Source of the DNA: a virus
Taxonomy: Duplodnaviria > Heunggongvirae > Uroviricota > Caudoviricetes
Virus record (IMG/VR): IMGVR_UViG_3300044557_000151
Span: 1 to 59,722 of that record
Strand: one strand, 5' to 3'
Length of the DNA: 59,722 nucleotides
Below the pieces are notes generated by a model that saw nothing but the letters and a program-made list of their open reading frames with translations, was not told the DNA's origin and made no database searches. Positions 46,510 to 53,749 of this stretch are shown here, piece by piece. Position 1 is the stretch's first letter, and every line of letters begins with the position of its first letter. Both the position numbers and the translations under genes were made by a program.

Positions 46510-46965
46510 ATGAGCGAATCGAAAGGTGCTAGATACAAAGGAGTAACATTCCGACTCGACAAACAAGCCGATCGTGAAGTAATCGAATGGCTTGAAGATC
46601 TCACGAAAGGTAAAAATGGCAACAAATACGCCCGGGGTGCGATGAGGCTCGCCATGGCGATGGCTAAGACAGGTCTAGTCACCACAGATCAAATATACGA
46701 AGCGGGGGAGCGAACCGATGCTGCACGCGTGTTTGACTACCTTGTCGATAGCAAATATATTGTCATCGGCGAGAAGTCTGATGGTGGTGTCCGGATCAAT
46801 ATGATGGACCCCGACAAAGAACCATGGCCTCCTAAAGCCCCAGATCGTCCTGCAAGCGAATTGTTGGCAGACATTGCTGCCGATAAGAAGGCTGCTGAAG
46901 ATAAACGTATAGCTGAAGAAGCCGCTAAAATTGAGAAGGGCGAGATCCCAGGCATAGACTTCTAG
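46510..46965 (+). CDS. Second RHH-like DNA-binding protein
   Basis: Start ATG 46510 (SD GGAGG). Pattern GVTFRLDKQADREVIEWLE...KYARGAMRLAM, with a Pro/Ala/Lys-rich C-terminal tail. Confidence 0.55.
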   Translation: MSESKGARYKGVTFRLDKQADREVIEWLEDLTKGKNGNKYARGAMRLAMAMAKTGLVTTDQIYEAGERTDAARVFDYLVDSKYIVIGEKSDGGVRINMMDPDKEPWPPKAPDRPASELLADIAADKKAAEDKRIAEEAAKIEKGEIPGIDF

Positions 46966-48065
46966 GCGTATTGCTTGTTGTAGTAGTTAGAGTATTCGAT
47001 ATTACGTGTGTATGCAGACTCAGCCAGGGCGTAATCAAAGAAGTTGCCAAGAGTCTTTCGGATAAAGGCTTCAGGCTTACGAATCTTGCGTCCATATTGT
47101 TGGAATCCACTGAAGCATTCACGCACACAGAAGATGACCTTATCACGGAGTTGATCTTGCATGATAGTGTTCGTTTCGATGCAGGAGTCTTCAGAGGTGA
47201 TAGGGTATTTTGGCTGAATAGAGTTATTCAAATCGACCTTGTAACGAGATACAGCAGTGGATTTAGTCGTATAGATTAGATCAATAACCTGGTGAAGCAT
47301 CTTGTAATTATGACCGATGAGAGACTTCAATTCGTCAGCAAGTCCCATTGGCAAGCCTTTAACTGATGATGATTGCATATAGTTTTCAATCAAGAGACGG
47401 TTAGAGTCAGAATTCTCTTGGATTTTCATACCCTTGAAATCAAAAGCGGTATATGTATTTCCGTTTTTGACCTGTTCGTTAGATGATTCAGAAGTATGAG
47501 AGTTATCTACAATGGATGCAGATGCAGGAGAATCAGCCTGGGGGAGTGCAACTGGTGTATCTGGTGATAAGTTCTTAGAGTCAAGTACACTTGTAGGCAA
47601 ATTTTGCTTACCGTCTTGAGCGCGAAAAAGAACTAAACGTGGATATAAGTCGAATTGGTAAGCAGATTTTGCTTTCGAAGCTTGAGCAGTGAAGTAAGAT
47701 TTGGGCAACAGATACTTAATCTTAGTTGAACGCTTAGCTGTGATTGGATCAGAAGGTAAAGGCATAGCATCACCAAGGAAGATACGACATGCACCTTTGC
47801 CAATTTGCTCATAGGAAATCAAGTGTACTGCACGAAGATCACGCATTACACTGGATGCGGTCCGCAAGGAACAGTGAAGAGATTCAGCCATTTCAGCTTG
47901 AGTGAACCACACGTAAGGGATATCGTTTTCCATGATCCCGTTTACCTTTGATAGTTCGATTCGATTGCTGATGAGGCCGTAGGCAATCATATGATTAGGC
48001 TTGAGAGATTGGAAAGTCTTGGATTTGAGTAGAGACATTGGAACTTTAATGTATGGAGTAGTCAT
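46962..48065 (-). CDS. repA: Plasmid replication initiator, RepA_N-like
   Basis: YIKVPMSLL....FQSL...HMIAYGLISNRIELS..NG.....PYVWFTQAEMAE.LHCS fits the RepA_N pattern. Likely start is ATG 48065 (track start 48107). Confidence 0.7.
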   Translation of the reverse strand: MTTPYIKVPMSLLKSKTFQSLKPNHMIAYGLISNRIELSKVNGIMENDIPYVWFTQAEMAESLHCSLRTASSVMRDLRAVHLISYEQIGKGACRIFLGDAMPLPSDPITAKRSTKIKYLLPKSYFTAQASKAKSAYQFDLYPRLVLFRAQDGKQNLPTSVLDSKNLSPDTPVALPQADSPASASIVDNSHTSESSNEQVKNGNTYTAFDFKGMKIQENSDSNRLLIENYMQSSSVKGLPMGLADELKSLIGHNYKMLHQVIDLIYTTKSTAVSRYKVDLNNSIQPKYPITSEDSCIETNTIMQDQLRDKVIFCVRECFSGFQQYGRKIRKPEAFIRKTLGNFFDYALAESAYTRNIEYSNYYNKQYA

Positions 48066-48205
48066 AGTATGTGTCTTCCTTCCGGGAAGGCAATCAAAAA
48101 GGCTCACAAGAGATCTCCAGAAAATAAACTTCTGAATGTCCTAACTTGCGAGCCTTTAACCTGATTCATCGTTATTTTACAACTGTAAAAAGTTGCTCAT
48201 AAGAC

Positions 48206-48381
48206 TTGCTGAAACAGGGTGATCTGGGTTATAATATTGTATGTAATGAGGTGGGATATATCACTCCTACTCATAAATCACACAACTTCCAGATCGTTAA
48301 AGGATTGCAAGAGGGTCGCTTCCTCTTGATAATCTGATTATGATGCTTCGCCAAAAGCCTCATAATCAACGGTCTTTTCTT
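48206..48381 (+). ncRNA. Putative antisense copy-control RNA opposite the repA leader
   Basis: Promoter TTGCTG-18 nt-TATAAT, then three hairpins (ATGAG..CTCAT, CAAGAGG/CCTCTTG, TGATTATGA/TCATAATCA) and a T-rich end. Confidence 0.5.
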
Positions 48382-48412
48382 ATGCCGTCAAATTGAATTT
48401 GTTTACTCCTTT

Positions 48413-48441
48413 ACTATAAACGGCCTGTGGAAAAAGTGCAA
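48413..48441 (-). promoter_or_regulatory. Putative repA promoter
   Basis: Minus strand reads TTGCAC-17 nt-TATAGT. Confidence 0.6.
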
Positions 48442-48469
48442 TATTAAGTTTTAATCACATGGATCATGG

Positions 48470-48478
48470 TGTGGATAA
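48470..48478 (-). promoter_or_regulatory. DnaA box
   Basis: TGTGGATAA is a perfect TTATCCACA on the minus strand; a 1-mismatch copy TGTGGAAAA is at 48426-48434. Confidence 0.55.
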
Positions 48479-48882
48479 CTTGTTTACGATACATATAACG
48501 GAAAATAAAGATCGGGCCTCATGCAGCAGGAAATGGAAAGGCCGAAATGTTGATTTCACAATGTCTGTACAAAGGATAGTGTGTTGACAATGTCCATGAA
48601 TCATGGAACGCGATCTTTGTCGCCAAATAGTTGGTTATTTTGGACAAAAGATTACCTGGTGCATGAAGCGCGATCTTTGACGCGGTAAGTTTAAAAACAG
48701 CCCAAAAAGTTAGTGAAAAAATATAGCGGATAAAGTTCACTGAAAGTTAATTAAAACGTGAGTGAAACCTGAGTAAAATATTGAGATCAAAATTTGGATT
48801 GAAATGGAAAAATGGGATCATATTCAACCTGTGAAATACTAAACTATTGTTATTTAATAACACTCAAATTGGACACAAATAT

Positions 48883-48919
48883 CGAAGGCTAGGAGAGAAA
48901 TCTCCCAGCCTTATTTTTA
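48883..48919 (+). terminator. Intrinsic terminator
   Basis: AAGGCTAGGAGA-GAAA-TCTCCCAGCCTT followed by ATTTTTT. Confidence 0.65.
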
Positions 48920-49567
48920 TGCAGTGAAGATGAATGTCAAGATGCAGGGTGATTCGAGTGAATATACCCCCGGAGGGACACGGAGTGGAATTAGATAAGA
49001 CATAGCTAATATAGGGTAAAGTGGATGGAAAATGTAAATAGAAGGATGCAGCCTCCGGCTCATGCTACGCATGAAACAGGGAGATGAAGGCAGAAATGGA
49101 TCAGGAAAAATGGGAGAAAATTTGGGATAAGTGTGGGGAGCAACTACCCAACAAAATGTAAAAAATCAAGGGCTTTTTTGAGAAAATTTACCCCGGGGTT
49201 ATACCTAAAAAATTCTAGTTTTTTGGGTATAGAATTAAATGGGGGTGTATATACACAAAAAACTTAGTACTATCTAAAAATAAGTATAAGTAGTATGTGG
49301 TTTTAAAAGTATAGTCTTTTAAATTTAAAAGGTATATTCTAAAAATTTAAAAGTATAGTGTTAGTATCTGCTACCACTATACTTATATTTTAAATAATAT
49401 GTGTTTTATTTTTCAACTTATACTTTTAAATTTTAAACGTGTATTTTTATATTATTTTTAAAACTTGCTTAATTTTTTAATTTTCCACTTGACATTAATA
49501 TTATTCTATGTTATTTACGCGTGCACGCATACGCGTTTTTCGCGCATTAATAGGATATGTTTTTTTG

Positions 49568-49673
49568 AAATCGTGTATCCCTTGCGGCTGTAAGGCTCAA
49601 CTTAATTATGTCATTTAATTTTTATCAATCCAAAAATATTTTAAAATCGTGTAACCCTTGCGGCTGTAAGGCT
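49568..49673. repeat. 30-bp direct repeat pair (period 76 bp)
   Basis: AAATCGTGTA(T/A)CCCTTGCGGCTGTAAGGCT at 49568-49597 and 49644-49673, one mismatch. Confidence 0.9.
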
Positions 49674-49720
49674 TAGACCACTTCAAACAACTTAAATCAA
49701 AATTAAATCAAAAATAGGTG

Positions 49721-49748
49721 TTGCAATCCAATTTCAGCATGTTATGAT
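49721..49748 (+). promoter_or_regulatory. Early sigma-A promoter P1
   Basis: TTGCAA-16 nt-TATGAT with TG extension and an upstream A-tract (UP-like). Confidence 0.6.
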
Positions 49749-49844
49749 TGTCTACGTTGAAAGGGAACGACAGCAAGGGCGCAAGCCTAAGCGGTCACGC
49801 CTTACAACCGCATCACTCAAAGGGTGAGCGTAGTTGAAAGAGTT

Positions 49845-49973
49845 TCAAATTAAGGTGTTGACAACTGATAGCAACACTGGTAAGGTTGTCACATACCAAC
49901 GCAACACGGTTTCAAAATTAAATCAAATTAAGGTGTTGACAACTGATAGCAACACTGGTAAGGTTGTCACATA
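49845..49973 (+). repeat. Two identical 51-bp promoter units (early P2 and P3)
   Basis: 49845-49895 equals 49923-49973. Each contains TTGACA-17 nt-TAAGGT with TG extension. Confidence 0.85.
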
Positions 49974-50618
49974 AGCAATAAGGGAAGCGGGTTTAAATGG
50001 TAAGCTTCCCGGCGTAAGGGCACACTAAAACGGCGCTAGATTCTACCATACAACGTAATGCCACATGTAAGGCTTACAATGTTGTCGTCGCATGGTGTTA
50101 TAGGTTTTGTTTAAACCGCTTTTCGTTCCTTGAAAATTGAATAAGCATATATGTCAGTAGCTATAAAGGTTGGCCTAACTTGAAACAGCGTTGTGATAAC
50201 GGGGTATAGTCAACATGACTGTGGTGTGAGGGCAGCGGTGTATTATGCGCATCCGAGCATTCAGAAAACACTGAGTGATACTAGATTCAACGGTGGCACA
50301 ACCGTGCCTTGCGTAGCCTTAACATGGGCTAGTGCGGGTGTTAGTTTACTTGATATTGCGGCATGACAACGGCCTGATTCTAGGCGTGACACGTTGTTGT
50401 GAGTATAGGGTTTCACCGTGTGAAATGACGCAAGTAGGGAAGCGCGGGCTTTCGGAACGGCTGTAAAAGGTCAATAAACCGCTATACGTAAACTAAAATC
50501 AATCTATATCGGTTGTAGCTAACCGGTATTTTATAGGGTATCAAATTGACGCCTTATAATATGCCATTAGCTAAACAAACACTATCTAGCGGATAGTGTT
50601 TGACAATGGGGGGAAATT

Positions 50619-50762
50619 ATGAAAGACTTGTTTTTAACAGTTTTCTTTTGGCCGTTGTTTCACCCGCTAACGGTGGGGGCTTTAGTATTAACCGCCCTTG
50701 CTACCGCGACGTGGTGTGAGTCTGATTCATGGCACGACTTTGTTTCTGGATTTTTCAAATAA
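50619..50762 (+). CDS. Small membrane protein (47 aa), not in the ORF track
   Basis: ATG after GGGGGG. Translation is MKDLFLTVFFWPLFHPLTVGALVLTALATATWCESDSWHDFVSGFFK. Confidence 0.55.
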   Translation: MKDLFLTVFFWPLFHPLTVGALVLTALATATWCESDSWHDFVSGFFK

Positions 50763-50780
50763 CGAAAAGGGGTTTATATC

Positions 50781-51398: not shown

Positions 51399-51713
51399 AT
51401 GCTTAAAATCAAGAAATTTTCCGCACTTGACTATTTTGATGCTGACGACTTGACAACTGACGTAAGTACCGCCATTGCCATCTTTCCTGACGGTTCAATG
51501 GTTAATGGGTGTTTTTGTTGTGGTATACGTGGCAATGACCACAACTTGGTTATTGGGTGTCTAGATTGCGATTGGCAACAAGCGCATGACGTGTACGGTG
51601 TTGTTCGCCTTGTACCGGAAACCGGTGTCGCTTTAATTGACACTAAACAAACACTATCGTGTCAACAAGAACTTTTGGTTAAGCGCGGCGGCTATTCAGT
51701 TGAGCGTTACTAG
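51399..51713 (+). CDS. Hypothetical early protein (Cys-rich)
   Basis: 104 aa, SD GGGGGT, contains FPDG...GCFCCGIRGNDH. Confidence 0.7.
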   Translation: MLKIKKFSALDYFDADDLTTDVSTAIAIFPDGSMVNGCFCCGIRGNDHNLVIGCLDCDWQQAHDVYGVVRLVPETGVALIDTKQTLSCQQELLVKRGGYSVERY

Positions 51714-51722
51714 TGAGTTATT

Positions 51723-51779
51723 GACGGGCTATGGCGTGTGTCGCATTGCGACATAGGGTGTTCGATTCACCCGCCCGCC
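51723..51779 (+). ncRNA. Miniature tRNA-like element 1
   Basis: Acceptor-like GACGGGC/GCCCGCC, T-arm GGGTG-TTCGATT-CACCC, middle hairpin TGTGTCGC-ATT-GCGACATA. There is no D-arm and no CCA. Confidence 0.6.
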
Positions 51780-51832
51780 TTATTGAGCGCCACTATTAGG
51801 CGTATCAAGAAATTTTAAGGAGGTCTTTCAAA

Positions 51833-52303
51833 ATGAAAGAACAAAACATGACTTTAGATGAAAAACTGGCATACGTGGCAAACTATCCCGTTCAGTCAAA
51901 ACTATGGGACTATGCCACGGCTGACTTTTCAAAAGTTGAAGAAACTTTTCTGGGTTCTGCTATGGATGGGGTGGACTTGTTTGTAGAGACCGGCGTATCG
52001 CTTGACGCGCAAGGTGTTACCACCATGTATGGGCACGACAAACTTATTAAAAACGCCTTGTATGTATGCGATACGCAAGCGTATATCGACAAGAAGAACG
52101 TGTTAGGCATGACGTACAGTGAATTAACCAATGATGCCGTTATTGCAGGGCCTTTTTCGTCAATTGAAGAAATTTTAACAGACCTTGCTTGCCGTTATCA
52201 AGAAAGCGAGGGTGACGACTTATGGGGCGGTGACGACTGGCGTCATGACTTATCTATGAAACAATACGACGCTGATTTTCCAGAAACGGTAGCGGCCGAC
52301 TAG
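51833..52303 (+). CDS. Hypothetical acidic early protein
   Basis: 156 aa, SD AAGGAGGT. Confidence 0.75.
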   Translation: MKEQNMTLDEKLAYVANYPVQSKLWDYATADFSKVEETFLGSAMDGVDLFVETGVSLDAQGVTTMYGHDKLIKNALYVCDTQAYIDKKNVLGMTYSELTNDAVIAGPFSSIEEILTDLACRYQESEGDDLWGGDDWRHDLSMKQYDADFPETVAAD

Positions 52304-52668: not shown

Positions 52669-52722
52669 CCCCGCAATGGGTGTCACTTGACACGATACGG
52701 CTGTTCGATTCAGTCGGCGGGG
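52669..52722 (+). ncRNA. Miniature tRNA-like element 2
   Basis: CCCCGC/GCGGGG, T-arm CGGCTG-TTCGATT-CAGTCG, middle hairpin GTGTCA-CT-TGACAC. Confidence 0.6.
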
Positions 52723-52767
52723 ATATGCACTATTAATAATTTAAAGAATTTTTAGGAGGTATTCATT

Positions 52768-53085
52768 ATGTTTACAGCAATTAAGCAATGCGAATTATCC
52801 ATGACGGCAATTAACCGTGTCGTGCGTGGCGTCAATGCCAACGTAGAAGAACTGGACATATATTTTGATCGTAGCGGGCGTATTGTCGGAACAATCGGCT
52901 TTGGTAACTGGTACGAAAAGGGAGGCAAAACGTGGTACCCAGAAGGCGCTGTACTAGTGGCACGCGGAAGAAAATTTTCACCCATTGGCAAAGTTGACTT
53001 TGAGGAAGCAAGTGACGGTATCGACTACGCGATGGAACAACTAGAGTTTGCACAAAAGTACAGCGATTATGATTTTGAATATTAG
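52768..53085 (+). CDS. Hypothetical early protein
   Basis: 105 aa, SD AGGAGGT. Confidence 0.75.
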   Translation: MFTAIKQCELSMTAINRVVRGVNANVEELDIYFDRSGRIVGTIGFGNWYEKGGKTWYPEGAVLVARGRKFSPIGKVDFEEASDGIDYAMEQLEFAQKYSDYDFEY

Positions 53086-53116
53086 TGTAGGGAAGAATTT
53101 TTAGGAGGTTATTATC

Positions 53117-53389
53117 ATGAATAAACGTGAATTTAATAAGGCTTTAGCATTGGAATTGTCATTCTTGAAAGTACCACGCAATGCAATTTATGTACAGAAT
53201 GCCGGCAAGTTAGAAGGTGTTTCGGTACGCAAAGAAAATTTAGTCAACGCGTCAATTAATCGCAACGTTGTGACAATCGAGTGGACTACTCCGCAAGGTG
53301 TAAAGCGCGATGTTATCGACTGGAATAAGGCGTTCACACCGAACATGATCGCACTAACGGCGGATAAGTTTGTTGAAGTGTTGCGTTAA
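53117..53389 (+). CDS. Hypothetical basic early protein
   Basis: 90 aa, SD AGGAGGT. Confidence 0.75.
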   Translation: MNKREFNKALALELSFLKVPRNAIYVQNAGKLEGVSVRKENLVNASINRNVVTIEWTTPQGVKRDVIDWNKAFTPNMIALTADKFVEVLR

Positions 53390-53398
53390 AGAAAGTTT

Positions 53399-53453
53399 TG
53401 CCACGCTGGACACGTCATATCATGGCGGCCGCTGTTCGAGCCAACGGGTGGCA
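53399..53453 (+). ncRNA. Miniature tRNA-like element 3
   Basis: TGCCAC/GTGGCA, T-arm CCGCTG-TTCGAGC-CAACGG (one mismatch), middle hairpin GTCAT-ATC-ATGGC. Confidence 0.55.
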
Positions 53454-53497
53454 GTTAGCACTAGTAATAATATAAAGAAAATTTGGAGGTATACGCA

Positions 53498-53749
53498 ATG
53501 GCGACACAATCAATTCAGTTATACAACGCACAAGGTCAAGAAATTTTAGGTGGTACTGATACCATGGTATTCACGTCACGATATACGCCTTATGTTAGCG
53601 TGGCGGCGTTCCTGAAAGGTGGCTGGATCGAACGGGCTGTTAGTGTAGCGCGTAATATCAAACACCAACAACCGGTTCGGGTGAAAGTTATCACTAGTCC
53701 AGATTATGATACCGCGCATGATTCAGTATTCTATGAAGCCACAATCTAA
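53498..53749 (+). CDS. Hypothetical early protein
   Basis: ATG 53498 after SD GGAGGT, 83 aa. Confidence 0.7.
   Translation: MATQSIQLYNAQGQEILGGTDTMVFTSRYTPYVSVAAFLKGGWIERAVSVARNIKHQQPVRVKVITSPDYDTAHDSVFYEATI

Follow-up and report, generated by a model that had tools for sequence, protein, structure and literature searches.

A boxA-like element behind predicted rRNA-type promoters in the untranslated early leader of a lactic acid bacterium phage: a candidate mimic of rRNA operon leaders

Genomic Setting of the Early Leader

The window, the whole 59.7-kb stretch of DNA analysed here, is the left part of a 123.7-kb virus record with a completeness estimate of 99%. The terminase of the phage record shows 42% identity to an SPbeta-type Bacillus phage terminase. 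A RepA_N initiator is encoded on the minus strand of the window (46962-48107), together with an actin-like (ParM-like) partition ATPase and a UvrD helicase, and this combination gives the genome the look of a phage-plasmid. Distant relatives of the RepA protein are located on Lactobacillus and Limosilactobacillus plasmids. No credible ORF lies between repA and the first gene that points rightward (48107-50619). The part of this interval that adjoins repA consists of 1.1 kb of non-coding DNA (48107-49200) that is 94-99% conserved across all siblings, more conserved than many nearby genes, and is strongly skewed towards G over C on its plus strand.

Close relatives of the locus are found among metagenomic sequences. 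Exact-protein look-ups led to metagenomic sibling loci, a pattern scan of metagenomes added one short contig (L008), and protein searches returned a handful of siblings only, all at least 52% identical. The DNA of the leader region has no match among GenBank phages or PLSDB plasmids, and searches of IMG/VR viral contigs with RepA, the ParM-like protein, a 104-aa early protein and three DNA patterns gave no relatives. Three matches to the promoter pattern in GTDB genomes were judged to be due to chance. Outside about nine near-identical metagenomic siblings no relatives were found, and with so small a set no deep covariation alignment could be built.

The untranslated leader of the early operon spans the distance from the promoters to the Shine-Dalgarno sequence and ATG of a 47-aa ORF (Table 1). 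No Pfam family was found for this ORF, and the peptide resembles a small membrane peptide or the product of a type I toxin-like gene. Farther to the right, the early region is a mosaic of cassettes: early genes are present, absent or replaced (51700-52300 and 52700-53700) in comparison with L003, L004 and L006, which are otherwise 95-99% identical, and L003 and L006 lack a 156-aa gene at 51833-52303.

Table 1. Features of the early leader and its surroundings, in window coordinates
Feature	Positions	Strand	Remarks
Promoter P1 (predicted)	49721-49748	+	TTGCAA, 16-nt spacer, TG-extended TATGAT; consensus scan
Small structured element between P1 and P2	49752-49850	+	GCAA-capped hairpin, UCACUC/GGGUGA hairpin, possible closing stem CUACG/CGUAG
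Promoter P2 (predicted)	49858-49886	+	TGTTGACA, 17-nt spacer, TGG-TAAGGT; within perfect 51-nt repeat
Promoter P3 (predicted)	49936-49964	+	Second copy of 51-nt repeat; predicted start near 49969-49972
Untranslated leader of early operon	49971-50618	+	Length about 650 nt if started at P3, greater from P1 or P2; no ORF; presumed transcribed
Variable cassette	49975-50491	+	Type A in the window; delimited with blastn and MAFFT
5'-proximal hairpin	49983-50011	+	GGGAAGC/GCUUCCC with 15-nt loop; loop complementary to 50109-50119 and 50473-50483
Small hairpin	50103-50117	+	GGUUU/AAACC; boxB-like position, 7-10 nt upstream of boxA
boxA-like island	50125-50144	+	GTTCCTTGAAAATTGAATAA; sole conserved sequence inside the cassette; in all siblings
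Right flank, nearly invariant	50495-50618	+	92-98% identical across types A and B; z -6.05 (50495-50625)
Weak terminator-like hairpin	50506-50534	+	AUAUCGGUU/AACCGGUAU, then UUUAU; not called by terminator scan
Long hairpin	50517-50572	+	Overlaps 3' arm of terminator-like hairpin
Perfect 11-12-bp hairpin	50576-50602	+	Variable loop; 5 nt before GGGGGG ribosome-binding site
First early ORF	50619-50762	+	Very hydrophobic 47-aa peptide; open in all siblings, three amino-acid changes

Predicted Promoter Array

The interval 49700-49975 is predicted to contain three tandem promoters of the sigma-70 (sigma-A) type. P1 is retained in siblings L003, L004, L006 and L010. P2 and P3 lie within a perfect 51-nt direct repeat (49845-49895 and 49923-49973), each copy of which contains TTGACA-17-TAAGGT. 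Among siblings and between copies, the -35 element, the TAAGGTTGTCAC block and the spacing of this promoter type are invariant, whereas the sequence of the spacer varies, and the number of repeats is variable as well, with one extra copy in L003. Because the promoter elements and their spacing are fixed while the spacer sequence and the copy number are free to change, the 51-nt repeats behave as promoters rather than as RNA helices. The region had originally been predicted to give rise to a large structured RNA of about 600-850 nt; its first 220 nt or so (49750-49970) are instead largely promoter array.

P2 resembles the rrn promoters of Limosilactobacillus fermentum, Limosilactobacillus oris and Priestia megaterium. 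The rrn operons of L. fermentum and L. oris are preceded by two to three tandem promoters of the form GTTGTTGACA-17-TG-extended -10; in the phage there are three, which take the form GGTGTTGACA. In addition, the 12-mer upstream of the promoter in L004, TTTCAAAAAAGT, is identical to the one upstream of P. megaterium rrn P2.

The element between P1 and P2 is both conserved and folded. Across five siblings it shows one compensatory pair, several switches between G-C and G-U, and few breaks. Within the possible closing stem, CUACG has become CUGUG in L004 and L010, and pairing with CGUAG is kept through G-U, which is possible on the plus strand only. This 85-100-nt element is a genuine small fold with mild covariation.

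Two further elements lie in the neighbourhood of the array. A 35-nt unit, TTTTGAAATCGTGTATCCCTTGCGGCTGTAAGGCT, occurs upstream of P1 in two copies that are 94% identical and 76 nt apart (49563-49597 and 49639-49673). Each contains a CCUU/AAGG mini-hairpin and a TGTAAGG block that resembles the -10 region of P2 and P3, here at a spacing of 20 nt; the units are retained in siblings and may be operators or weak promoters. In the AT-rich DNA to the left of the promoters, the type B siblings carry a palindrome, TTATCTAGTTTTGAAAACTAGATAA (L006 2843-2875; L004 about 2900-2930), of which the minus-strand reading resembles a Bacillaceae spacer boxA. The AT-rich counterpart in the window is 57-82% identical, and the palindrome is probably an origin or operator rather than a boxA.

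A Leader Body Exchanged Between Siblings

Most of the leader downstream of P3 is a cassette whose flanks are 92-98% identical across the sibling phages. Type A is found in the window, in L009 (identical) and in L003 (97-98% identical). Type B, found in L006, L007 and L008, has 565 nt and is unalignable with type A, and type B', found in L004, is type B with a different first 150 nt. Homology of A and B was considered and rejected, given that the 7-mers they share barely exceed those of shuffled sequences and are not colinear. The sibling cassettes have no ORF, no Rfam match and no six-frame protein similarity. Judged by their sequences, such leaders are exchangeable as cassettes between sibling phages.

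The absence of a credible ORF from 49750-50610, noted in the original prediction, holds up, as the longest frames (57, 51, 46 and 44 aa) are without ribosome-binding sites and are not kept in siblings. The 57-aa frame (50193-50366), which differs from L003 by two synonymous and two non-synonymous changes, was rejected as a gene since it lacks a ribosome-binding site and is absent from type B. A pseudogene origin of the cassettes was rejected as well, their six-frame translations (A, B and B') matching nothing but themselves, and so was an origin from an insertion sequence or omega RNA, the body being without similarity to the rest of the genome.

The complementary segments from which a large fold had been drawn by eye are all present at about the expected places. 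They include CTACG 49752/CGTAG 49829, GGGAAGC 49983/GCTTCCC 50005, AGCGGGTTTAAA 49987/TTTAAACCGCT 50109 and TAGTTTAC 50342/GTAAACTA 50488, as well as the 11-bp hairpin at 50576-50602. It had further been claimed that nearly the whole region folds. The interval taken as one piece does fold better than shuffled sequences (49750-50610, z -4.1), but the excess comes only from the two flanks, 49752-49850 (z -3.8) and 50495-50625 (Table 1). For the body itself (49971-50500, about 520-530 nt) the MFE is -155.2, and shuffled versions average -151.9 (z -0.53). An equally low or lower energy is reached by 32 of 100 shuffles, so that the folding energy of the body equals that of the shuffled controls. 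The two halves of the type A body give z -1.2 each, and the type B body gives -1.26 and -0.46. The fold had been drawn on the plus strand; by z the minus strand scores equally well (-3.3 vs -2.9 for the plus strand). The type A substitutions, described below, spare plus-strand pairing only.

Rfam offers no match to the window at the gathering thresholds, and at E<=10 the window and the sibling loci L006 and L004 gave nothing relevant. Phages this close to one another would not swap a member of an ornate RNA class for unrelated sequence. The proposal of a new ornate RNA of the GOLLD or ROOL kind is not supported, the region having no Rfam match and a body that folds like shuffled sequence and is not conserved.

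Local RNA Structure

Selection acts on local RNA elements, but no fold is conserved over the body as a whole. The sibling types have bodies that cannot be aligned with one another, and covariation in the body is limited to one 7-bp hairpin (49983-50011). Compared with L003, the window differs in this 5' hairpin by two compensatory pairs (G-C to C-G and G-C to A-U), and the rest of the body is 97% identical. The constraint was evaluated with a substitution test on a small sample and on the predicted MFE structure, in which the 23 substitutions between the window and L003 were re-placed at random on matching bases and the energies of the plus-strand structure were compared. For the plus strand of type A, random placement was worse in all but 0.5% of trials (P 0.005), and with the 5' hairpin left out (13 substitutions) P was 0.007-0.03. 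The minus strand of type A gave no signal (P 0.37-0.94), and the test was not significant for type B. On these predicted structures, some local RNA structure appears to be selected, most clearly the 5' hairpin.

Hairpins close to the 5' end protect Firmicutes RNAs from 5' decay. The rrn transcripts of B. subtilis also begin with a 5'-proximal hairpin (PMC13753749). A separate long-range complementarity joins 50112-50127 (UAAACCGCUUUUCGUU, just before boxA) to 50761-50776 (AACGAAAAGGGGUUUA, in the ribosome-binding region of a 114-aa gene), with 15 of 16 positions complementary. It is specific to type A, and may reflect long-range translational control or chance.

A boxA-Like Island in Unrelated Cassettes

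The island is the only block common to the unalignable cassettes A, B and B', and in type B it reads GTACTTTGAAAACTGAATAA. In blastn-short comparisons with Limosilactobacillus, the type B island matches the 16S-23S spacer boxA at 21/22 positions and the 16S leader boxA at 18/18. The type A island matches Limosilactobacillus rrn boxA at 14/15 and departs from the boxA core, with CCUUGAAAAU instead of CUUUGAAAAC. For these comparisons the rRNA genes of rrn operons on plasmid-collection sequences were located with Rfam, and the operons are those of Lactobacillaceae other than the host genus (L. fermentum and L. oris) and of a Bacillaceae (P. megaterium). In L. fermentum and L. oris, GACCTTTGAAAACTGAATAAT lies about 127 nt before 16S, and GTACTTTGAAAACTAAATAAT follows the spacer tRNAs at a distance of about 105 nt from 23S. 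On P. megaterium pBM400, which the island also matches, GAACTTTGAAAACTGAACAA precedes 16S by 61-71 nt, and the spacer contains GTTCTTTGAAAACTAGATAA. There are likewise matches to the B. subtilis rrn boxA consensus AUGAUCUUUGAAA, which is bound by NusB (PMC13753749), and to the mycoplasma 16S-23S spacer primer GTTCTTTGAAAACTGAAT (PMC3019172).

Within the 123.7-kb phage genome the exact 14-mer of the island is unique. The boxA is on the plus strand, in untranslated DNA after the predicted promoters, and lies about 155 nt from the start of the leader in type A and 195 nt in type B. It follows a small hairpin that ends 5-10 nt before boxA in A, B and B', compared with 7 nt in the leaders of L. fermentum and L. 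oris; the phage hairpins in this boxB position are weak (5 bp). Two other readings of the island were rejected, that of a mini-ORF for want of a Shine-Dalgarno sequence, and that of a promoter for want of a -10 element at the right spacing. At the level of sequence comparison, then, the island matches rrn boxA, has a defined position and strand relative to the consensus promoters, and survives in cassettes that have otherwise been replaced.

The boxA 20-mer also occurs in non-coding DNA in phages of Leuconostoc and Liquorilactobacillus, and phages of C. difficile, Streptococcus and Enterococcus have near matches. These occurrences, all at the level of sequence, hint at wider use of the element.

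Individual cases have settings of their own. In Leuconostoc phage LN34 (KC013027; L017 1501-1520), the exact type B boxA 20-mer lies near the genome end, in unannotated DNA after the last gene, and is followed by about 230 nt without an annotated gene, in which no tRNA or Rfam family was found. The relatives of LN34 and the Liquorilactobacillus phage UCMA21115 likewise have the exact type B 20-mer. C. difficile phage phiCD211 (LN681537; L018 2001-2024), a 131-kb phage-plasmid-like phage, has the boxA-like sequence GTACATTGAAAACTGAATAT between genes in the region of its repressor/Cro-type switch.

Proposed Role of the Leader

boxA-dependent antitermination is textbook knowledge for E. coli rRNA operons and for lambda, and lambda is the classical case of boxA use by a phage. 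With moderate confidence, we regard the early leader as a mimic of an rRNA operon, in which boxA would load Nus factors for read-through of the leader and the early operon. The mechanism is modelled on rRNA operons and on the nut sites of lambda, and it is from this analogy that we infer transcription, Nus-factor binding and read-through. Three tandem sigma-A promoters of the TGTTGACA form would fire rightward into a long untranslated leader, and the nascent leader RNA would carry its copy of boxA just after a small hairpin. This boxA would bind NusB-S10 and, together with NusG and NusA, would give rise to a termination-resistant RNA polymerase. The modified polymerase could then transcribe through an untranslated stretch of 650 nt, past the terminator-like hairpin and along a long early operon. 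The rest of the leader is a swappable cassette with some selected local hairpins.

In the terminator-like hairpin, U509 is replaced by C in siblings, which turns a U-G pair into C-G. A terminator scan of the early operon scored few strong terminators and did not call this hairpin either, so the need for antitermination is presumed. As a fallback, the original prediction had suggested a put-like antitermination or processing leader. In kind, an antitermination leader is what the present reading retains; the type would be that of a host boxA rather than of a put-like, factor-independent RNA.

Searches of the literature found no bare rrn-type boxA with rrn-like promoters reported for phages of lactic acid bacteria. 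Direct demonstration of rrn antitermination in Firmicutes is still absent, and biochemical support for the Firmicutes rRNA case, namely the binding of NusB to boxA, is only recent (PMC13753749). If the proposed reading is true, a phage-plasmid that copies rrn promoters and boxA would be independent natural evidence that boxA works in lactic acid bacteria, and would offer a compact reporter system for testing the signal. For annotation, it would mean that a 20-nt signal, and not a giant RNA, can account for a long leader that looks "empty".

Alternative Explanations

The cassette downstream of boxA could itself be the product. It would then specify a separate non-coding RNA, about 350-560 nt long and abundantly produced in the manner of rRNA, whose alleles A, B and B' act in trans in regulation, in immunity or as a decoy against host defence. 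We consider this rather unlikely, and it is compatible with the boxA reading. In rRNA operons, too, boxA comes before structural RNA. The three alleles are similar in length (515, 534 and 565 nt), none has an ORF, and the GC content of the cassette is like that of coding DNA and unlike that of the AT-rich spacers nearby. The 97% conservation of the type A body between the window and L003, with substitutions that are structure-sparing and strand-specific, also fits a functional RNA. However, such an RNA would have a folding energy like that of shuffles in all three sub-windows and in both types, A and B would have neither structure nor sequence in common, and type B has no covariation signal. 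Furthermore, no defined 3' end is seen except the weak hairpin, and an RNA of this kind would have no relatives beyond the near-identical siblings.

A broader version of the same idea holds that Firmicutes phages widely borrow the rrn boxA together with rrn-like tandem promoters, and that the first cargo here is an allelic non-coding RNA (A, B, B') of about 350-560 nt with a function in trans, for example in immunity or counter-defence. This combined claim is likewise doubtful. If the wide borrowing is true, the exact 20-mers in Leuconostoc and Liquorilactobacillus phages and the near matches in C. difficile, Streptococcus and Enterococcus phages would be further cases.

It is more doubtful still that the leader is a non-functional spacer. 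On this account it would be mosaic filler acquired by recombination, and the island would be a fragment captured from host rrn DNA, or else a site acting at the DNA level, retained solely as a point of crossover. The early region is indeed a strong mosaic in which entire genes come and go from sibling to sibling; the folding of the body is that of random sequence; and L004 shows a crossover about 35 nt upstream of the island. Nevertheless, a captured fragment would not have been retained on the correct strand and at the correct site in three unrelated cassettes, each time preceded by a hairpin and by rrn-like tandem promoters. The flanks are also more conserved than neighbouring genes, and the 5' hairpin has compensatory changes, neither of which suits filler.

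Least probable is RNA immunity of the P4 CI or P1 c4 kind, in which the loop of the 5' hairpin (49987-49998) would pair in cis or in trans with two copies of UAAACCGC (50109-50119 and 50473-50483), causing or relieving termination ahead of the early genes, and the allelic cassettes would confer different specificities of immunity. The 11-bp complementarity with one bulge is present twice in type A, only 25 nt separate the second target from the terminator-like hairpin that follows it, siblings carry different alleles of the cassette, and 50112-50127 and 50761-50776 are complementary as described above, but type B has no clear equivalent of the triple, the changes between the window and L003 fall in the stem and not in the loop or the targets, no processing signals are known, and a G+U-rich 500-mer with a chance-level MFE offers many candidate pairings.

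Comparison With Known Systems

Like the GOLLD (RF01998) and ROOL (RF03087) RNAs, the region is about 500-800 nt long, belongs to a phage of lactic acid bacteria and has no ORF. It differs from them in having no covariance-model match at E<=10, no conserved core and no excess folding energy, and in having siblings with unrelated sequence at the same place.

The put RNAs of HK022, which form two conserved stem-loops directly behind the promoter, act without Nus factors and contain no boxA. In the phage leader no conserved two-hairpin module is common to A and B after P3, and Rfam searches gave no put match; the element that follows P1 (49752-49850) is conserved and folded. The lambda nutL and nutR sites are closer, in that a phage early leader would by analogy modify RNA polymerase so as to pass terminators, and boxA is part of nut. 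In contrast to lambda, no N-like protein or N-type boxB was identified in the phage. The order of the parts differs too, as boxA comes first in lambda nut, whereas in both the phage leader and rrn a hairpin is followed by boxA.

The closest comparison is with the leader and spacer signals of Firmicutes rrn operons, and with the Nus-factor complex on E. coli rrn. Unlike these, the phage boxA precedes protein-coding early genes, with no rRNA downstream, and lies 155-195 nt from the start, as opposed to about 30-50 nt in the rrn leaders compared, in surroundings that are a swappable cassette. No recognisable boxC was found in the phage leader. The likenesses lie in the parts on which the signal is built: the boxA is the same (up to 21/22), a hairpin precedes boxA in the same order, tandem strong promoters with TGTTGACA stand upstream, and boxA is placed in untranslated RNA, on the strand predicted to be transcribed.
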